A DNA stretch of 64,000 bases from an uncultured Actinomycetota bacterium (GTDB lineage Bacteria > Actinomycetota > Actinomycetes > JAFAQI01): assembly GCA_963770565.1 (NCBI GenBank), contig CAVYQE010000011.1:864001-928000 (forward strand). The letters are read 5' to 3'. Position 1 is the first letter of the stretch. Each line of letters begins with the position of its first letter. This document shows, in pieces, positions 12,859-64,000 of the stretch. Under the pieces are notes generated by a model. That model was not told the DNA's origin. It saw only the letters and a program-made list of their open reading frames with translations, and made no database searches. The translations under genes and the position numbers were made by a program.

Positions 12859-13728
12859 TCAGACGCCGGTCGGGTGCCAGACCGTCTTGATCTCGAGGAA
12901 CGCGGTCATCCGGCTTAGGTCCGGCGCCGCCGACCAGTCCGGCTCGGTCGCGGCCCGGCGCAGCACCCGCTTGACCGTGTCGGCAGCGGAGCGCTCGAGG
13001 TCGTCGGCGAGGCCGTCCGCACCGGCCAGGTCGAGGGCGTCGACATCGTGGTGCGAAGCCAGCCACGGCGCGAGCTCCGGCACCTCGCCGGTCAGCAGGT
13101 TGACGACGCCGCCCGGCAGGTCCGACGTGGCGAGGACCTCGGCGAACGTGATCGCCGGCAGTGGCCGCTGCGTCGACGCGATCACCACGCAGGTGTTGCC
13201 GCTGACGATGACCGGCGCGACGACCGACACCAGGCCGAGCAACGACGACGACGGCGGCGCGATGACCCCGATGACTCCGGTGGGTTCGGGCACGGAGAAG
13301 TTGAAGTACGGCCCGGCCACCGGGTTGGCGGCGCCGAGCACCTGGCTGAGCTTGTCGCTCCAGCCGGCGTACCAGACCCAGCGGTCGATCGCCGCGCTCA
13401 CCTGGGCGTCCGCGGCGCGCTCGTCGATGCCCTCGGACGCGGCTACCTCGGCGACGAACTGGGCCCGCCGGCCTTCGAGCATCTCCGCGATCCGGTACAG
13501 GATCTGGCCGCGGTTGTAGGCGGTGGCGCCCGACCAGCCGGGCTGCGCCTTGCGCGCCGCAACGACGGCATCCCGCAGGTCCTTGCGCGAGGCCAGCGCG
13601 ACGTTGGCAATGAATCCGCCGTCGGAACCGGAGATCGGGTAGGTGCGGCCGGACTCCGACCGGGGGAACGCGCCGCCGATGAACAGCTTGTAGGTCTTGC
13701 GGACCTCGATCCGGTCGTCAGTGGTCAA
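12859..13728 (-). CDS. Short aldehyde dehydrogenase-family protein (NAD-binding part, no catalytic domain)
   Basis: KTYKLFIGGAFPRSESGR, YAGWSDK, EPTGVIG, LPGGVVN, EIKTVW; no ELGGK or catalytic Cys; TTG start is inferred. Confidence 0.85.
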   Translation of the reverse strand: MTTDDRIEVRKTYKLFIGGAFPRSESGRTYPISGSDGGFIANVALASRKDLRDAVVAARKAQPGWSGATAYNRGQILYRIAEMLEGRRAQFVAEVAASEGIDERAADAQVSAAIDRWVWYAGWSDKLSQVLGAANPVAGPYFNFSVPEPTGVIGVIAPPSSSLLGLVSVVAPVIVSGNTCVVIASTQRPLPAITFAEVLATSDLPGGVVNLLTGEVPELAPWLASHHDVDALDLAGADGLADDLERSAADTVKRVLRRAATEPDWSAAPDLSRMTAFLEIKTVWHPTGV

Positions 13729-15151
13729 GGTAGGCCCCCAGCCCGTGCCGGCCGCCCTCGCGGCCGTAACCCGATTCGCTGTAACCACCGAACGGCGAGG
13801 CCGGGTCGAACCGGTTGAACGTGTTGGCCCACACCACGCCGGCCCGCAGCTTGTTCGCCATCCAGAGGATCCGCGAGCCCTTGTCGGTCCAGATGCCGGC
13901 CGACAACCCGTACGGCGTGTTGTTGGCCTTCGCGACCGCTTCTTCCGGGGTGCGGAAGGTCATCACCGCGAGCACCGGTCCGAACACTTCCTCCTGAGCC
14001 ACCCGGTGGGCGGGCGTGACGTCGGTCAGGACGGTCGGTGCGAACCAGTAGCCGGTTGTGGGCAGGTCGCACGGCGGCGACCACCGGGTCGCGCCTTCGG
14101 TCTCGGCGATCGCGGTCAGCTCGGTGATCCGCTCGAGCTGCGCAGCCGAGTTGATCGCGCCGATGTCGGTGTTCTTGTCGAGCGGGTCGCCGAGCCGCAG
14201 GTGCAGCAGCCGCCGCTGCAGCGCGTCGATCGTTTCCTCCGCGATCGACTCCTGGACCAGCAGCCGCGAGCCCGCGCAGCACACGTGTCCCTGGTTGAAG
14301 AAGATCCCGTTGACGATTCCCTCGATCGCCTGGTCCAGCGGCGCGTCGTCGAACACGATGTTCGCGGCCTTGCCGCCGAGCTCGAGGGTGAGCCGCTTCG
14401 GGGTGCCGGCCACGGTCTTGGCGATCTGCTTGCCGACCTCGGTCGATCCGGTGAATGCGACCTTGTCGACGCCCGGGTGCGCGACCAGGGCCTGGCCGAC
14501 GCTCGGGCCGCCGTTGATGATGTTGACCACGCCAGGGGGCAGGTCGGCCTGCTGGATGATGTCGGCGAGCGCGAGCGCCGACAGCGGGGTGGTCTCGGCC
14601 GACTTCAGTACGGCGGTGTTGCCCGCCGCGAGTGCGGGGGCAAGCTTCCAGGCCGCCATCAGCAGCGGGAAGTTCCACGGCACCACCTGGGCGGCGACGC
14701 CGAGCGGCTGCGGGTCGGCGCCGAACCCCGCGTACCCGAGCTTGTCGGCCCAGCCCGCGTAGTAGAAGAAGTGCGCGGCGGCGAGCGGTACGTCGACGTC
14801 GCGCGACTCGCGGATCGGCTTTCCGTTGTCGAGGGTCTCCAGGACCGCGAGCTCGCGGGCCCGCTCCTGGATCAGCCGGGCGATCCGGAACAGGTATTTC
14901 GACCGCTCCCGGCCCGGCATCGGTCGCCACACCGTGTCGGAGGCCCGGCGCGCGGCGGCCACTGCAGTGTCGATGTCGGCGGAGTCCGCGAGCGCCACCG
15001 AGGCGAGCACCGACTCGTCGGCCGGATTGACGCTCTTGAACGTGCCCCCGTTGCCGTTGGTGAACCGGCCGTCGATGAACATGCCGTAGGACTCGCGCAG
15101 CCGCGCGGTGTCCCGTGACTCAGGCGCAGGGGAGTACTCGAACTCGCTCAT
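13718..15151 (-). CDS. Aldehyde dehydrogenase (probably acts on acetaldehyde from DeoC)
   Basis: PWNFP, FTGST, LELGGK, FNQGHVCCAG, EEVFGPV. Confidence 0.93.
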   Translation of the reverse strand: MSEFEYSPAPESRDTARLRESYGMFIDGRFTNGNGGTFKSVNPADESVLASVALADSADIDTAVAAARRASDTVWRPMPGRERSKYLFRIARLIQERARELAVLETLDNGKPIRESRDVDVPLAAAHFFYYAGWADKLGYAGFGADPQPLGVAAQVVPWNFPLLMAAWKLAPALAAGNTAVLKSAETTPLSALALADIIQQADLPPGVVNIINGGPSVGQALVAHPGVDKVAFTGSTEVGKQIAKTVAGTPKRLTLELGGKAANIVFDDAPLDQAIEGIVNGIFFNQGHVCCAGSRLLVQESIAEETIDALQRRLLHLRLGDPLDKNTDIGAINSAAQLERITELTAIAETEGATRWSPPCDLPTTGYWFAPTVLTDVTPAHRVAQEEVFGPVLAVMTFRTPEEAVAKANNTPYGLSAGIWTDKGSRILWMANKLRAGVVWANTFNRFDPASPFGGYSESGYGREGGRHGLGAYLDH

Positions 15152-15236
15152 CGCTGCACCCTCACCGGGCGCAGCGATGCAGAGGCGCCGATCACATTGG
15201 AGCGAGCCACCTTCGCTCCGCTTCGGACTCGCTCAT
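15148..15236 (-). repeat. MIRU-like intercistronic mini-ORF cassette, copy 1 (mini-ORFs 15236-15192 and 15195-15148)
   Basis: Aligns with 63131-63220 and with the 5' part of 55198-55236; a 13-bp hairpin ends on the ALDH ATG. Confidence 0.8.
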
Positions 15237-15239
15237 CGC

Positions 15240-16199
15240 TCAGTCCACCGTCACGTAGTGCGGGCCGGAGTAGGTGCCGGTCCGCAGTTTCAACCGTTGC
15301 ATCAGCAGATCGTTGAGCAGGCTCGAGGCGCCGAAGCGGAACAGCCGCGGGGTCAGCCACTCGTCGCCGGCCACCTCTTTGACCGCGACCAGGTAGTGCA
15401 GCGCGTCTTTCGACGAGCGGATCCCGCCGGCCAGCTTCACACCGCGATAGTCGCCGGTAACCGCCGCGAAGTCGCGGACCGCGCCGAGCATGGTGACCGC
15501 GACCGACGGCGTGGCCGACGGGCTGATCTTGCCGGTCGAGGTCTTGATGAAGTCGGCGCCGGCCGCCAGCGCCAGCCACGACGCTCGGTGCACGTTGTCG
15601 TAGGTCGCCAGCTCGCCGGTCTCGAGAATCACCTTCAGGTGCGCCGAGCCGCACTCCTGCTTGACCGCGACGATGTCGTCGTACACCTGGGCGTAGCGGC
15701 CGGACAGGAACGCGCCGCGGTCGATGACCATGTCGATCTCGTCCGCGCCGGCGCTGACCGCTTCGCGGACGTCGGCCAGCCGCACGGCCTGCGAGGCACG
15801 GCCGGACGGGAATGCGGTCGCCACGCTGGCCACCGCGACGCCGGTGCCGGCGAGGTGCCCGACCGCTTCGGCGATCAGATCCGGATAGAGACACACCGCC
15901 GCCACCCGCGGGCACTGCGGGTCGGTCGGGTCCGGGTGGACCGCCTTCGCGCACAGGCTGCGGACCTTGCCCAGGGTGTCGTTGCCCTCCAGCGTGGTCA
16001 GATCGATCATTGCCACCGAGGTGTCGAGACCCCACTGCTTGGCGTCGGTCTTGATGCTGCGCGACCACAGCATCGCGGCCCGCTGCTCGACGCCGACCTG
16101 ATCGACCGGCGCCAGCCCGCGCAGGAACCGGCGCAGCGACGCGTCGTCGGCTCCCGCCAGCTCCGGCAGGGAGTCGCTGGACGGTCGCGCCGTGGTCAT
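15240..16199 (-). CDS. deoC: Deoxyribose-phosphate aldolase
   Basis: IDLTTLEG, ATAFPSG, EIDMVI, LKVILETGEL, DFIKTSTGK, RFGASSLL. Confidence 0.95.
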   Translation of the reverse strand: MTTARPSSDSLPELAGADDASLRRFLRGLAPVDQVGVEQRAAMLWSRSIKTDAKQWGLDTSVAMIDLTTLEGNDTLGKVRSLCAKAVHPDPTDPQCPRVAAVCLYPDLIAEAVGHLAGTGVAVASVATAFPSGRASQAVRLADVREAVSAGADEIDMVIDRGAFLSGRYAQVYDDIVAVKQECGSAHLKVILETGELATYDNVHRASWLALAAGADFIKTSTGKISPSATPSVAVTMLGAVRDFAAVTGDYRGVKLAGGIRSSKDALHYLVAVKEVAGDEWLTPRLFRFGASSLLNDLLMQRLKLRTGTYSGPHYVTVD

Positions 16200-53666: not shown

Positions 53667-54857
53667 ATGCGCATCCTGCTGTTCACGGGGAAGGGCGGCG
53701 TCGGCAAGACGACGGCGGCGGCGGCCACCGCTGTGTTCGCCGCTGCCCGCGGCAGCAAGACGCTGGTGCTCTCGACCGATCCCGCTCATTCGCTGGCCGA
53801 TGCGTTCGGGGTCGACCTGGCCGGAACCCCCACCGAGATCGACACCGGGCTCTACGGCCAGCAGGTCGATGCGCAGCGGGCGTTCGAGGCGAGCTGGCGC
53901 GATGTCCAGCACTACCTGCGCGGCGTGCTCGAGCAGGGCGGGGTCGACCCGCTCGAGGCCGAGGAGCTGACCGTTCTTCCGGGCGCGGAAGAGGTGCTCG
54001 CCCTCCTGGAGCTGCGGGCCCAGGTCGCCGGCGGGCGGTGGGACACCGTGATCGTCGACTGCGCGCCGACCGGCGAGACCTTGCGGCTGCTCGCGCTGCC
54101 GGAGGCCCTGCAGTGGTGGATGCAGCGGATGTTCCCGCCCGAGCGGCGGGTCCTGCGAAACCTGCGCCCGGTGCTGTCGCATCTGGTCGGGCTGCCGCTG
54201 CCGCCCGACGCGGTCTTCGCGGCGGTTGATCGGCTCTCGAGCGAGCTCACCGAGGTCCGCGACCTGCTGGTCGATCCCGCCGTGACCTCGGTCCGGCTCG
54301 TTCTCACGCCGGAGTCGGTCGTGGTGGCCGAGGCGCGGCGCACCCTGACTTCGCTGTCGTTGTACGGCTACCGGGTCGACGGCGTGGTCGCCAACCGGGT
54401 CTTCCCGCTCGACAGCGACGACCCGTGGCGGGCCGGCTGGGTGGCCGCTCAGCGCACCCAACTGGAGGCGGTGCGGGTCGGATTCCCCGGTCTGCCGATC
54501 TGGTCGGCGTCGTACGCCGCGGCCGAGCCGGTCGGCCTGGACGCGCTCGCCGAACTCGCGGTCGCGACGTACGGCGAAAGCGACCCGCTGGCGGTGTCGA
54601 CGACGCCCGAGCCGCTGATTGTCGAGCGGGTCGCGACCGACGAGTACGTCCTGTCGGTGTCGCTGCCGCACGCCGAGCGGCGCGACGTCGAGCTGGTCCG
54701 CAAGGGCGATGACCTGGTGCTCACGGTCGGCGCCCATCGCCGGGCGCTCGCGCTGCCGAGCGCGCTGCAGCGCTGCGTCGTGGACGGGGCGGCATTGCGC
54801 GACGGGCGGTTACGGGTGCGGTTCCGGGTCGATCCAGACGCTTGGGTGCGCTCGTGA
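53667..54857 (+). CDS. ArsA/Get3-family ATPase
   Basis: GKGGVGKTT, STDPAHSL, DCAPTGETLRLL. Confidence 0.92.
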   Translation: MRILLFTGKGGVGKTTAAAATAVFAAARGSKTLVLSTDPAHSLADAFGVDLAGTPTEIDTGLYGQQVDAQRAFEASWRDVQHYLRGVLEQGGVDPLEAEELTVLPGAEEVLALLELRAQVAGGRWDTVIVDCAPTGETLRLLALPEALQWWMQRMFPPERRVLRNLRPVLSHLVGLPLPPDAVFAAVDRLSSELTEVRDLLVDPAVTSVRLVLTPESVVVAEARRTLTSLSLYGYRVDGVVANRVFPLDSDDPWRAGWVAAQRTQLEAVRVGFPGLPIWSASYAAAEPVGLDALAELAVATYGESDPLAVSTTPEPLIVERVATDEYVLSVSLPHAERRDVELVRKGDDLVLTVGAHRRALALPSALQRCVVDGAALRDGRLRVRFRVDPDAWVRS

Positions 54858-55201
54858 CCACCACTCCTCCGGGCCCGCTGGCGGAAGAGGCGGCCCGGCT
54901 GGTCGAGGCAATCGGCGAGTGGGCCCGCGGCGCGGTCGGTGACGTCCGGGCGCCGTCGATCGGCGGCAGCAAGGAATGTCAGATCTGCCCGATCTGCCAG
55001 CTGCTCGCGCTGGTCCGCCGGACCCAGCCGGAAACGTTCGGGCATCTGGCGGAAGCGTCGGCGTCGATGCTCGCGGCGCTGCGGACGATCGTCGAGCGAC
55101 ATGACCACGGCAGCGCGCGCACGAGCGGGGTCGAGCGGGTCGACCTCGACGACCTCGACGACCTCGACGACCTGCACGTCGACACGGGCCTGGCCACGTG
55201 A
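54854..55201 (+). CDS. Conserved hypothetical protein (DUF5304-like)
   Basis: LAEEAARL, ECQICPICQ, VERVDLD; GTGA overlap with the ArsA gene. Confidence 0.75.
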   Translation: MTTTPPGPLAEEAARLVEAIGEWARGAVGDVRAPSIGGSKECQICPICQLLALVRRTQPETFGHLAEASASMLAALRTIVERHDHGSARTSGVERVDLDDLDDLDDLHVDTGLAT

Positions 55202-55236
55202 GCGAGTACCGGAGCGAAGCGACGATGCCGCGATGA
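55198..55236 (+). repeat. MIRU-like mini-ORF cassette, copy 2 (short form, MSEYRSEATMPR*)
   Basis: GTGA overlap with the upstream stop and ATGA overlap with the glucokinase start; shares TGAGCGAGTACCG.AGCGAAGCGA with 63131-63220. Confidence 0.8.
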
Positions 55237-56177
55237 GCCTGGCGATCGGCATCGACATCGGCGGCACCAAGGTGGCGGCCGGGGTCGTGGACGAGGCCGG
55301 GCAGGTGCTGGCCGTGGTTCGCCGTCGTACTCCGAGCCGAGATCCGGGCCACATCGTCGACGTGGTGGTCGAGATCGTCGGCCAGCTGCGTGCCGACCAC
55401 AAGGTCGCCGCGGTCGGGATCGGGGCGGCCGGCTTCGTCGATGCGGCTCGGTCGACCGTGGTCTTCGCCGCGAACCTGGCCTGGCGGGACACCCCGATTC
55501 GCGCCGACATCAGCAGCCGGCTCGACCTGCCGGTGGTGGTCGAGAACGACGCGAACGCGGCCGCCTGGGGCGAGTTCCGCTTCGGGGCCGGCGACCAGGA
55601 GCCCGATGTCATGGTCCTGACGATCGGCACCGGGATCGGTGCCGGGATCGTGATCGACGGCGCGCTGTATCGCGGCCGGTTCGGGATGGCGGGTGAGCCC
55701 GGGCACATGCGGGTGGTGCCGGGTGGCCGGCTGTGCGGCTGCGGCAATCGCGGCTGTCTCGAGCAGTATTGCAGCGGTACTGCCCTGGTCCGGGCCGCGC
55801 GCGAGGTGGCGCAGGAGCGGCCGGCCGATGCAGCCCGGCTGCTCGAGCTCGCCCATGGCGACGTGGCCAACATCGACGGCCCGGTGGTCACCAAGGCCGC
55901 GCAGGAGGGCGATCCGGCCGCGGTGGACTGCTTCGACGAGATCGGACGCTGGCTCGGGCAGGGTCTGGCCGATCTGGCCGCGTTGATCGATCCCGGCCGG
56001 TTCGTCATCGGCGGAGGGGTTGCCGAGGCCGGCGACCTGCTCCTGGTCGCCGGGCGCGAGTCGTACGCGGCGGTCCTGAGCGGCCGGGGCTACCGGCCGT
56101 TGGCGGATGTTGTCCCGGCCCAGCTCGGGGCGCAGGCGGGCCTCATCGGCGCGGCCGATCTGGCCCGCCGGCTCTGA
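55233..56177 (+). CDS. glkA: ROK-family glucokinase
   Basis: GIDIGGTK, ENDANAAAWGE, GTGIGAG, CGCGNRGCLEQY. Confidence 0.93.
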   Translation: MSLAIGIDIGGTKVAAGVVDEAGQVLAVVRRRTPSRDPGHIVDVVVEIVGQLRADHKVAAVGIGAAGFVDAARSTVVFAANLAWRDTPIRADISSRLDLPVVVENDANAAAWGEFRFGAGDQEPDVMVLTIGTGIGAGIVIDGALYRGRFGMAGEPGHMRVVPGGRLCGCGNRGCLEQYCSGTALVRAAREVAQERPADAARLLELAHGDVANIDGPVVTKAAQEGDPAAVDCFDEIGRWLGQGLADLAALIDPGRFVIGGGVAEAGDLLLVAGRESYAAVLSGRGYRPLADVVPAQLGAQAGLIGAADLARRL

Positions 56178-61676: not shown

Positions 61677-63134
61677 TTAGGCGCGGAGCTTGCGGAGCGC
61701 GGTGAGCCAGCGGTCGTAGTCGGCGTCGTTTCGTTGTCCCGGCTCGAATCGGCGGTCGAGCCGCCAGGTGTCACGCAGCTCGTCGGTCGATGACCAGGTA
61801 CCGACCGCGAGCCCGGCCAGGAATGCGGCGCCGAGCCCGGTGGTCTCGGCCACCTGCGGCCGCCGCACCGGCACCTGCAGCTGGGTCGCCTGCATTTGAC
61901 AGAGCAGGTTGTTAGCGGCCGCGCCACCGTCGACGGACAGCTCCGGTACTCCGATCCCGGCGTCACGCGTCATCACGTCGACCACGTCCCGCACCTCGAA
62001 CGCGATCGCTTCGAGCGTTGCTCGGACGACATGCGCGCGCGTGGTGCCGCGGGTGATCCCGATGATCATGCCGCGCGCGTCGGGATCCCAGTGCGGGGCG
62101 CCGAGCCCGGTGAGCGCGGGCACGAACACGACTCCGCCCGAGTCCTCGACCGACCCGGCAACCGCCTCGGACTCGCTCGCATTGCTGATGATCCCGAGCC
62201 CATCGCGAAGCCACTGAATCGCCGAGCCGGTGACGAACACCGCGCCCTCGAGGGCATAGACCAGGCCGTGGCCGATGTCCCAGGCCACCGTTGTCAGCAG
62301 GCCGGCGTCCGAGCGCACGGCGGTGCCGCCGGTGTTGACCAGGACGAACGAACCGGTGCCGTACGTGCACTTGCTATCGCCGTCGCCGAAACAGGCTTGG
62401 CCGAACAACGCCGCCTGCTGGTCGCCGGCCACGCCGGCGATCGGCAGGTCGAGACCGAGGAACGCGCCCGGGTCGGTCCGGCCGAAGTCGCCGCTCGATC
62501 GTCGTACCTCTGGCAGTGCGGCTCGCGGCACCGCCAGCAGGTCGCACAGCTCCTCGCTCCACTCACCGGCTCGGATGTCGAACAACAGCGTGCGGCTGGC
62601 GTTGCTGGGGTCGGTCGCGTGGACCGCCCCGCCGGTCAACCGGGCGACCAAGTAGGCGTCAACCGTGCCGACCGCGACCTGGCCGGAGGTGACGCCGGCC
62701 CAGCTTGTCGGGTCGTTCTCCGCCAGCCAGGTCAGCTTCGTGCCGGTGAAGTACGGGTCGAGCCGCAGGCCGGTCAGTTCGGCGACCCGCGGCTCGTGCC
62801 CGGCGTCGCGTAGCCGGCCACAGATCGCGGTCGTACGCCGGTCCTGCCACACGATCGCGCGGCGGGGGGCGGCGAGGGTCTGGCGGTCCCAGAGCACCGC
62901 GGTCTCGCGCTGGTTGGTGATGCCGACCGCTTCGGGTGCGGGGCCGGTGGCCAGCGCGCTGCGGCAGGCCGCGAGGGTGGCCTGCCAGATCTCCTCGGGT
63001 TCGTGCTCGACCAGGCCGGGCTGCGGGAAGTGCTGGGCGAACTCCTGGTAGCCGCGCGCGGCGACCTCGCCGGTCTCGGTGACGATCAGCGCGGTGACGC
63101 CGGTCGTGCCGGCGTCGATGGCCAGGATGCTCAC
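61677..63134 (-). CDS. glpK: Glycerol kinase
   Basis: AIDAGTT, GITNQRET, IVWQDRRT, GDQQAALFG, KCTYGTG, GLGAPHW. Confidence 0.95.
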   Translation of the reverse strand: MSILAIDAGTTGVTALIVTETGEVAARGYQEFAQHFPQPGLVEHEPEEIWQATLAACRSALATGPAPEAVGITNQRETAVLWDRQTLAAPRRAIVWQDRRTTAICGRLRDAGHEPRVAELTGLRLDPYFTGTKLTWLAENDPTSWAGVTSGQVAVGTVDAYLVARLTGGAVHATDPSNASRTLLFDIRAGEWSEELCDLLAVPRAALPEVRRSSGDFGRTDPGAFLGLDLPIAGVAGDQQAALFGQACFGDGDSKCTYGTGSFVLVNTGGTAVRSDAGLLTTVAWDIGHGLVYALEGAVFVTGSAIQWLRDGLGIISNASESEAVAGSVEDSGGVVFVPALTGLGAPHWDPDARGMIIGITRGTTRAHVVRATLEAIAFEVRDVVDVMTRDAGIGVPELSVDGGAAANNLLCQMQATQLQVPVRRPQVAETTGLGAAFLAGLAVGTWSSTDELRDTWRLDRRFEPGQRNDADYDRWLTALRKLRA

Positions 63135-63220
63135 TGGTGCACCCACAACGGGTGCACCAGTGCGGTGACGCCGACGTCATGGGGGCGAGCCACCTTCGCT
63201 TCGCTTCGGTACTCGCTCAT
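63131..63220 (-). repeat. MIRU-like mini-ORF cassette, copy 3 (29 aa, MSEYRSEAKVARPHDVGVTALVHPLWVHQ*)
   Basis: ATGA overlap with the DUF1028 stop and GTGA overlap with the glpK start; a perfect 13-bp stem covers the glpK GTG. Confidence 0.82.
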
Positions 63221-64000
63221 TGGCTTGCTGCGGCTGCCTTGTCCCGCAGCACCTGGAGCACGACCGGGTCGATCTTCGGCTCGGATACGAGGCGGTCCTC
63301 GAGGTTCTCGATGCCGGCCCAGTCCCACAGCGCGAGCCCGATCGATGCCACGTCGTCACCGGCCGGGGGATGGCCGAGCGTGGTCAGCAGCCCGCTCACC
63401 TCCCGGGCGATCTCGTCGGTGACCACGAGCAGGTCCTCGGTGTCGGCCTTGGAGAACAGCAGCTCGTGCAGGTCGAGCAGTCGATTCAGCTCCGGCACCG
63501 GCCGCTCCGCGTCGTCGACCCGCAGGTCGACGTGGATGTCCGAGGTCGCGCCGTACCCGCTGTCGGCCCGGGCGACCAGCAGGGCAGTGCTCTGCCGGCC
63601 GCGGCGGTCGCCGCCGGCGTCGTCACCGGCAGCCAGCGCGGCCATCAGCCGGCGGGCGAGCGGGGCGGCTGGATCGCTGGCCAGCCAGGCCTTCGCCATC
63701 TCGTCGACCACTTCGGGCCCGGTCAGGATGTTGCCCTGGATCGCGTAGCCGGCGCCGGTAACGCCACCGGCCCACGGGTGGCAGCCGTCGCCGGTGAACG
63801 TCGCGGCCCGGCCCTCGCCGTCGACGATGCCGGCCTGGCGCTGCTCGCGCAACTCGTCCGCGGCGGTGAGTGCGTCGAGGGTCTGCTGGGCGCTCAGGCC
63901 CTGCTCGAGGTGGGACAGGCCCTGCGGCCGGTAGGCGAGGTTGGCGAAGGACTGGGTGGCGATCGCGCCGACGCCCGCTCGGGCGGCCGGCACCGCCGAT
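63217..64000 (-). CDS. DUF1028-family (Ntn-hydrolase-like) protein, 5' end beyond the window
   Basis: GAIATQS, AIQGNIL, AGGDRRGRQS, DLRVDD, AGIENLE. Confidence 0.88.
   Translation of the reverse strand, partial: SAVPAARAGVGAIATQSFANLAYRPQGLSHLEQGLSAQQTLDALTAADELREQRQAGIVDGEGRAATFTGDGCHPWAGGVTGAGYAIQGNILTGPEVVDEMAKAWLASDPAAPLARRLMAALAAGDDAGGDRRGRQSTALLVARADSGYGATSDIHVDLRVDDAERPVPELNRLLDLHELLFSKADTEDLLVVTDEIAREVSGLLTTLGHPPAGDDVASIGLALWDWAGIENLEDRLVSEPKIDPVVLQVLRDKAAAASQ

Follow-up and report, generated by a model that had tools for sequence, protein, structure and literature searches.

Three gene junctions in a 64,000-nucleotide (nt) stretch of the genome of an uncultured soil Actinomycetota bacterium (contig CAVYQE010000011.1, positions 864,001 to 928,000 of the forward strand; hereafter the window) carry copies of one short repeat unit, placed between the stop codon of one gene and the start codon of the next. 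The original prediction, made from the letters alone, described the unit as a cassette beginning RTGAGCGAGT(A)CCGRAGCGRAGCGA that ends in a stop codon overlapping the next start codon as RTGA, and likened it to MIRUs (mycobacterial interspersed repetitive units), reportedly described by Supply et al. in 1997. Reading the three junctions directly gave the same arrangement at each, with the cassette on the same strand as its flanking genes in all cases. The features of the three junctions, including the small open reading frames (mini-ORFs) of the units, are as follows, in window coordinates.

15240-16199, minus strand: upstream gene, DeoC-family aldolase (Pfam)
15148-15236, minus strand: repeat unit, the 15236 copy (nhmmer E 4e-23)
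15192-15236, minus strand: mini-ORF 1, MSESEAERRWLAPM and a stop on the mid-unit GTGA
15148-15195, minus strand: mini-ORF 2, (M/V)IGASASLRPVRVQR with a GTG start; its TGA overlaps the start of the downstream gene as ATGA
15149-15179, minus strand: hairpin 2 of the 15236 copy, 13-bp stem and 5-nt loop (-26.1 kcal/mol, z -7.45; covariation)
13718-15151, minus strand: downstream gene, aldehyde dehydrogenase (ALDH), 477 aa (Pfam Aldedh)
54713-55201, plus strand: upstream frame that weakly matches DUF5304 and whose TGA is overlapped by the GTG of the unit
55198-55236, plus strand: unit with an internal deletion that fuses about 25 nt from its 5' end to about 12 nt from its 3' end
55233-56177, plus strand: downstream gene, ROK-family glucokinase, 314 aa (Pfam)
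63217-64000, minus strand: upstream gene, DUF1028 plus PG_binding_2, cut by the window end, its TGA overlapped by the ATG of the unit
63131-63220, minus strand: canonical 86-nt unit plus terminal GTGA, mini-ORF MSEYRSEAKVARPHDVGVTALVHPLWVHQ and a stop (the 63220 copy)
63132-63162, minus strand: hairpin 2 of the 63220 copy (-26.2 kcal/mol, z -5.13)
61677-63134, minus strand: downstream gene, FGGY-family glycerol kinase, 485 aa (Pfam)

The predicted identities of the flanking genes agree with the Pfam matches (DUF5304 followed by ROK, DUF1028 followed by FGGY, and DeoC followed by Aldedh). At the last of these pairs, the overlap with the upstream stop codon implied by the prediction is absent: the deoC stop TGA (15242-15240) lies 3 nt 5' of the cassette ATG. 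No promoter-like or terminator-like sites were found in 14800-15600, and a look-up of RNA runs listed none that contains the stretch.

The 15236 copy measures 85 nt from its own ATG (15236) to the ALDH ATG (15151), one base less than the 86 nt of the 63220 copy, as had been noted before. As assembled, it lacks the A of GAGTACCG, near 15226, which is retained in the orthologous copy of the closest relative (G003; DNA flanks 91-95% identical, sampled proteins 94-100%). The TGA of mini-ORF 1 is overlapped by the GTG that opens mini-ORF 2, and the two-step relay of the original prediction would thereby lead from 15236-15192 through 15195-15148 onto the ALDH ATGA: the 1-nt deletion would divert the frame to the mid-unit GTGA, and termination and restart there would return the ribosome to the frame leading to the ALDH start codon. 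The mid-unit motif ATGTGA is present in six of the ten full units of the genome that contains the window (G000) and in the G003 orthologue that still has the A. Read runs were also searched for the missing A at 15226, and the best of them contain at most 0.33 of the sampled words. The 55198 copy is only 35 nt long from start to start and has lost both hairpins of the full unit (z -1.08), and its mini-ORF, VSEYRSEATMPR and a stop, opens at a GTGA that overlaps the DUF5304 stop and closes at an ATGA that overlaps the ROK start.

Copies within and beyond the genome

The search pattern of the original prediction matched the window twice (55199-55222, plus strand; 63196-63219, minus strand) against 0.01 matches expected, and it missed the 15236 copy because that copy is without the A. 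A loosened pattern gave 11 matches over the whole of G000 (4.43 Mb in 11 contigs, 68-70% G+C), and a reversed control pattern gave none. An nhmmer profile detected 10 full 86-nt units across 9 loci (E 1e-22 or better) as well as the deleted unit at window 55198 (E 0.002); the derivatives found beside the full units comprise this 35-nt unit and one of 14 nt. The expectation that copies elsewhere would be intercistronic, sense-oriented and frame-preserving held within G000: all 10 loci lie between co-oriented genes, with 20/20 flanking proteins matching Pfam families, the units are in sense orientation with RTGA at both ends (10/10), the 3' RTGA overlaps the downstream start (10/10), and the chain of frames from the 5' RTG ends in an ORF of 273-789 codons at every locus. 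At the 5' end, the unit RTG directly overlaps the upstream stop at 7/10 loci; between aspartokinase and aspartate-semialdehyde dehydrogenase a 14-nt micro-unit (MRVQR and a stop) bridges to the unit, and the other two loci have gaps of 3 nt and 14 nt, the latter being a native spacer that is also present in relatives. The ten gene pairs (upstream > downstream), with the state of the orthologous site in relatives, are listed below.

DeoC > aldehyde dehydrogenase (ALDH): filled in G003, empty in five other genomes
DUF5304 > ROK kinase: filled in G003, with the same shortened copy as in G000
DUF1028 > FGGY kinase (glpK): empty in G003, which lacks the 63220 copy at the site ...cccgATGAGCATC
SDR > AMP-binding enzyme (acyl-CoA synthetase): empty in G003
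TetR > AurF-like oxygenase: empty in G003 and also in G001, G002 and G004
IspF > thiolase, two units in tandem, 86 nt apart: empty in G003
CoxS-like > CoxL-like: empty in G003 and also in G001
acyl-CoA dehydrogenase > PhnD-like protein: no counterpart found in G003
aspartokinase (ask) > aspartate-semialdehyde dehydrogenase (asd): empty in G003 at the site ...gtcgATGACTGG, with a 100% identical Asd N-terminus
Rex > glutamyl-tRNA reductase (hemA): filled in G003

A supposed remnant of a third unit ahead of the thiolase array proved to be native spacer, present in G003 and G001. The original prediction had also pointed out that the three downstream genes in the window encode carbon-catabolic enzymes, possibly by chance. 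Since other copies precede functionally unrelated genes (asd, hemA and the acyl-CoA synthetase, CoxL-like, thiolase, AurF-like and PhnD-like genes), this pattern is indeed attributable to chance.

Among the 61 distinct units at all loci fetched, 47 relay through at least one mini-ORF into an ORF of at least 60 codons, and six open the long ORF directly. The relay is thus kept in 47/55 distinct non-fused units across genomes; among random RTGA sites opening a short ORF, 16% relay. In what appear to be element-derived N-terminal extensions, the 5' module of the unit (MSEYRSEAEVARSN-like) opens straight into long ORFs at L129, L044, L057, L067 and L032, the fused ORFs being those of GluRS, ArgJ, an SDR, an ABC-2 permease and a radical-SAM protein. 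The Pfam domains begin at residues 18-32, or at residue 149 for the radical-SAM protein, in ORFs whose coordinates were derived by hand and checked through these Pfam matches only. At L126 the 5' module also opens into a long ORF, which has no Pfam match.

A covariance model of the family (R1) gave matches at E 0.01 or better in 15 of the 37 further genomes of the order, 12 of them at 1e-8 or better. The matches within the order all fall in one family, in 7/15 genera. Outside that family, one genome of the class, G093, has two relay-competent copies, and no other convincing match was obtained among the 151 class-level genomes sampled. Weak matches in two genomes of the order, G006 (E 0.003) and G021 (E 0.0096), and in the class-level genome G112 do not look like units. 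Exact-pattern matches were found in six metagenome-assembled genome (MAG) records, labelled as Mycobacteriales, Frankiaceae or Frankiales bacterium; 11 metagenome contigs match as well. With blastn, plasmids and phages gave no match. When four unit-bearing loci were compared with Rfam, the units themselves matched nothing at E values up to 1. That the repeat is a chance similarity or an assembly artefact is barely credible. G000 is a metagenome bin (94.9% complete, 4% contamination) and the 1-nt deletion of the 15236 copy was read from the assembly, which would favor an artefact, but the excess of matches in the window, the absence of control matches in the genome and the presence of the family in independent assemblies (the 12 other genomes, the MAG records and the metagenome contigs above) all argue against it.

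Insertion, target site and spread

As the original prediction had anticipated, orthologous junctions with empty RTGA sites exist, and they were found at 9 loci. G003 is empty at 6/10 of the G000 loci, and, as outgroups are empty, the parsimonious explanation is gain in the G000 lineage. For the ALDH junction, 15150 is followed by 15242, with no unit between, in a soil-metagenome contig whose flank has 3 differences over 231 nt; the metagenome contigs that cover the 15236 unit are paralogous copies (with flanks matching C1:514547 and C2:12379), except one, which has the empty allele. Judged from these paired filled and empty alleles, the repeat is an insertion and is, by the same comparison, one that has been recently active.

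The letters next to the units point to a preferred site. The codon that follows the 3' RTG of the unit is AGC in 34/41 units, compared with 17.8% of 1296 junction-like RTGA sites in the genome, and 4/6 empty G003 sites already read RTGAGC (roughly p = 0.01, by binomial arithmetic on those figures). The apparent target is therefore RTGA, preferably RTGAGC. The letters repeated at both ends of filled sites extend over 4 to 12 nt, for example 4 nt (ATGA) at asd, 6 nt (ATGAGC), and 9 nt (ATGAGCGAG) at CoxL. The native thiolase gene of G003 (L237:1920-2040) starts ATGAGCGAGTAC, which is 12 nt identical to the 5' end of the unit; the G000 thiolase gene, behind its two units, is without the TAC codon.

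Because the end overlap is variable and a Y1 transposase is absent, homology-guided copying is favored over a cut-and-paste enzyme. Such copying might proceed by template switching between TGAGC(GAG) at the 5' end of the element and the same letters in the target, although this transposase-free scheme is a guess. We also considered whether the hairpins are DNA signals for a dedicated transposase, of the type that moves repetitive extragenic palindromic (REP) sequences (the REP-associated tyrosine transposase, RAYT) or of the IS200/IS605 type, recognising single-stranded DNA hairpins, with the relay frame acting only as a survival filter. Two hairpins near both ends, a strictly one-stranded orientation, insertion beside a fixed short sequence and clustering of units by lineage are all consistent with this possibility. 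However, the Y1_Tnp domain (PF01797) was found in 0/38 genomes of the order, G000 included, and no RAYT was found, compared with 6/14 controls positive in the same search, and end repeats of 4-12 nt fit homology-guided copying better than a fixed cut. We regard a dedicated transposase as quite unlikely. On inspection of the consensus, terminal inverted repeats of the type seen in miniature inverted-repeat transposable elements were also absent: the inverted repeats are internal and the RTGA ends are direct repeats, and the 5' end ATGAGCGAGTACCG is unlike the reverse complement of the 3' end TCATCGGTGCACCC.

Units also cluster by genome. The nearest unit lies in the same genome for 19/41 units, where 5.1 are expected and none of 2000 shuffles exceeded 15, and the mid-unit motifs are lineage-specific, as expected for proliferation within lineages. 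The TetR > AurF junction is filled in two genera (those of G000 and G044) and empty in four congeners of G000, and may have been hit twice independently, as far as these alleles indicate. In G044, a 23-nt stretch of this junction, ATGAAGGGTGAGTCATGAGCGAG, is tandemly duplicated just 5' of the unit (L061:1470-1660).

Frame, hairpins and the proposed relay

With 86 nt between successive start codons, the canonical unit has a length of 3n-1, and for this reason a 29-codon mini-ORF (consensus MSEYRSEAKVARSNVIGVSASVRPVRVHR) opens on one RTGA and stops on the next. The lengths of units with both ends recognised, 86, 83, 89 and 35 nt, are all 3n-1. Two units measure 85 nt, the 15236 copy and L115 of G014. 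The latter had been considered as a second rescued two-step relay, which was dropped since it lies between convergent genes and has nothing downstream; its length fits a relaxed constraint.

RNAalifold analysis of ten G000 copies predicted two hairpins, of which hairpin 1 begins at the G of the mini-ORF ATG and hairpin 2, with 13 bp, has a 3' arm that terminates in the start codon of the downstream gene. Folded alone, hairpin 2 has an energy of about -26 kcal/mol and z of -5 to -7. The final three bases of its 3' arm are the ALDH ATG (15151-15149) in the 15236 copy and the glpK GTG, paired with CAC, in the 63220 copy. Across 41 full units from 14 genomes, the predicted pairs are formed in 93.3% of cells, compared with 31-42% after sliding of the partner columns. 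Both sides have changed in 10 pairs, and 0/500 shuffles reach any of these measures. In the start-codon hairpin, 7/13 pairs show compensatory changes, including the R of RTG against the Y of CAY: when the start codon changes from ATG to GTG, the paired CAT changes to CAC, a form present in 10 sequences. G-U pairs are common (U-G in 34/41 units at one pair), and their frequency favors the sense strand as the one that folds.

The encoded peptide is not the conserved feature, because third codon positions are no more variable than the others (entropy 0.455, against 0.534 and 0.592 for the first two). It is highly improbable that the mini-ORF encodes a functional small protein (MSEYRSEAKVARSN...). 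Its first 14 codons are well conserved, and its first codons appear as N-terminal extensions of real proteins at five loci, but beyond the missing third-position excess, the C-terminal half varies freely with the stem and the conserved 5' half is itself a hairpin. In units at L043, L118, L123, L125, L127 and L066, the 5' module with hairpin 1 is joined to other 3' halves, and these units, of 59-86 nt, still relay, which suggests that the family is modular, with alternative 3' modules.

Taken together, these features are probably those of a non-autonomous MIRU-type relay repeat that copies itself, sense-oriented, onto RTGA at gene starts. This agrees with the original prediction of a MIRU-analogous mobile family at coupled junctions, given the sense orientation, the RTGA ends, the frequency of relay compared with random sites, and the empty alleles. 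The frame of the element opens at the old start codon or stop/start overlap and closes on a TGA overlapping a new RTG start, which the 3' end of the element supplies. Ribosomes arriving from the upstream gene, or at the old ribosome-binding site of the gene, would translate the mini-ORF and thereby melt hairpin 2, stop on the TGA and reinitiate at the overlapping start, with the start-codon hairpin making this hand-over obligatory. If ribosomes are handed on in this way, insertion would cost the gene little, and only relay-keeping insertions would survive. The 35-nt copy has lost the hairpins and kept the RTGA ends and the 3n-1 phase, and for that reason host selection seems to protect the relay; this copy suggests that the hairpins may serve the element or be transient.

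Several points weigh against this interpretation. The translation of the mini-ORF and reinitiation after it are steps that we infer, and the copying mechanism has no Y1 transposase or RAYT to account for it. The antisense strand also folds well (z -3.8 and -4.2), and compensatory changes in a palindrome can arise by templated correction from arm to arm, without selection on RNA. Eight of the 61 distinct units are without a 5' start codon or relay, and L115, between convergent genes, has no gene to relay into, so that a start codon is not a mandatory landing site. At two loci AGC in the filled allele corresponds to AAC or ACC/ACG in the empty alleles of relatives, and part of the target preference may therefore reflect overwriting of the first codons by the element. 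Finally, G000 units are on average only 85% alike, compared with differences of 5-9% between G000 and G003 flanks, and six gains would thus need several diverged donors or fast change of the units.

The hairpin also raises the possibility of a regulatory cassette selected by the host, in which the stem ties translation of the downstream enzyme to the upstream frame or fixes the ratio of the two; the repeats would then be recruited regulators and not tolerated parasites. Consistent with this, the hairpin is strong, every full unit has its start codon within the hairpin, the two covary, some copies persist at orthologous positions in two species (G000 and G003, at ALDH, hemA and ROK), and the AurF junction is filled in the G000 and G044 genera, with four G000 congeners empty. 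In contrast, the target genes have no common function, close relatives manage without the element, with six of ten G000 loci empty in G003, the units cluster by genome like a proliferating element, and the oldest shared copy, at ROK, has kept only the frame and lost both hairpins. On this evidence we consider a regulatory cassette unlikely.

A bolder version of the relay repeat, which is possible if doubtful, is a transposase-free parasite of start codons. Such an element would spread by homology of its 5' end (ATGAGCGAG...) with the first codons of genes, sometimes rewriting them to Met-Ser-Glu, and would lock the new start codon in a hairpin opened solely by ribosomes that translate the mini-ORF, with the conserved mid-unit RTGA serving as a corrector of frame for indels such as that at 15226. 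Were this true, translation of the gene would become dependent on the element.

Comparison with known repeats

In excerpts of two reviews and one research paper (PMC3184786, PMC12548453, PMC4213456), MIRUs are described as units of 40-100 bp, present in tens of copies inside operons, with ORFs overlapping adjacent genes at a spacing of -4, with start codons as insertion sites, with tetranucleotide direct repeats, and with unit lengths of 77 nt and 53 nt; an excerpt of one (PMC3184786) gives 40-50 copies for M. tuberculosis. The present family likewise consists of dispersed units in this size range that lie in operons, sense to the genes, and the small ORF overlaps the adjacent stop and start codons with its two ends, again at a spacing of -4. 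The lengths of the units are 3n-1 in both (77 and 53 nt for MIRU, 86 and 35 nt here), and both have internally deleted variants, occasional tandem copies, no known transposase, and filled and empty sites with short direct repeats, which in this family range from ATGA up to ATGAGCGAGTAC. The differences are that G000 has fewer copies than the number given for M. tuberculosis in that excerpt, that the host belongs to a different, uncultured lineage, and that a covarying 13-bp hairpin covers the new start codon.

R1 did not find the present family in 151 sampled genomes of the mycobacterial genus, which was located through its PE family; three weak matches (E 1e-4 to 5e-3) had no RTGA ends on inspection. 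A phased RTGA pattern found an array of three 77-nt units in G427, ahead of an ORF beginning MTSVLIVEDEE, confirming the design. With filters off, R1 scored 3.1 bits (E 1.3) on the three G427 units and 3.5 bits on units of G381, and alignment of the family with the 77-nt units gave no shared blocks and required large gaps. Folding of the G427 unit is no stronger than that of shuffled sequences (z +0.23), compared with z -4.4 for the unit of this family. In G256, a similar-looking motif, GAGCGAGGACCGGAGCGAGC, from a 77-nt tandem array was rejected (1.4 bits), and a weak match adjacent to an array of G427 (11.8 bits, with E 0.006 in 2.3 kb) would not be significant genome-wide. The low R1 score on the G427 units and the lack of shared blocks indicate an independent family of the same design. 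The dispersed repeat is thus a new family of known design and, by these comparisons, unrelated in sequence to known MIRU, in line with the original suggestion of a possibly undescribed element family. A search of open-access papers and preprints for MIRU-like elements outside mycobacteria returned nothing relevant.

Other relay-like inserts were also encountered. In other genomes of the mycobacterial genus, long tandem arrays of 77-nt RTGA-phased units with an internal second RTGA occur at L243 (G256:C14:272100-272900) and L222 (G381:C1:2449300-2450100), and the units of G256 and G427 do not resemble each other in sequence. In another genus of the host family, the ask > asd junction (L140 of G042, L144 of G048, L145 of G047, L147 of G044 and L152 of G043) holds a different insert of about 55 nt that runs from ATGA to ATGA and begins ATGAGAGACACCCCACGAA; from its layout it looks like a second relay-type repeat family. 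Unrelated short RTGA-to-RTGA inserts are present at otherwise empty junctions, namely rex > hemA in L168 (G002), L185 (G051) and L178 (G005) and ask > asd in L137 (G001). They measure 23, 20, about 56 and 20 nt, respectively, and the three counted ones are 3n-1.

How MIRUs move and how they affect expression has been unclear since their description. The same relay design appears to have arisen with unrelated sequence in another actinobacterial lineage, and it offers clean material in the form of six recent gains with matching empty sites and a clear target, RTGAGC. The variable length of the end repeats argues for homology-guided copying, and the covarying start-codon hairpin provides a concrete, testable mechanism of coupling. 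For genome annotation, the units create false small genes and shift predicted start codons, and in five apparent cases they have become N-terminal extensions of housekeeping proteins.

Two other classes of repeat share some of these properties. REP sequences and REPINs are short, GC-rich, hairpin-forming dispersed repeats that proliferate within lineages, accompanied by a Y1 transposase (RAYT). The present family resembles them in size, base composition, hairpins and lineage-wise proliferation. In contrast, REPs lie outside genes, usually after them, and have no phased ORFs, and the Y1 transposase that accompanies them was found in none of the 38 genomes of this order. Rickettsia palindromic elements (RPEs) insert within ORFs and can come to lie in frame in protein-coding genes. 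The present family likewise places a palindromic repeat in a coding frame, here with the 5' module as N-terminal extensions; RPEs, however, are not relays from stop to start.

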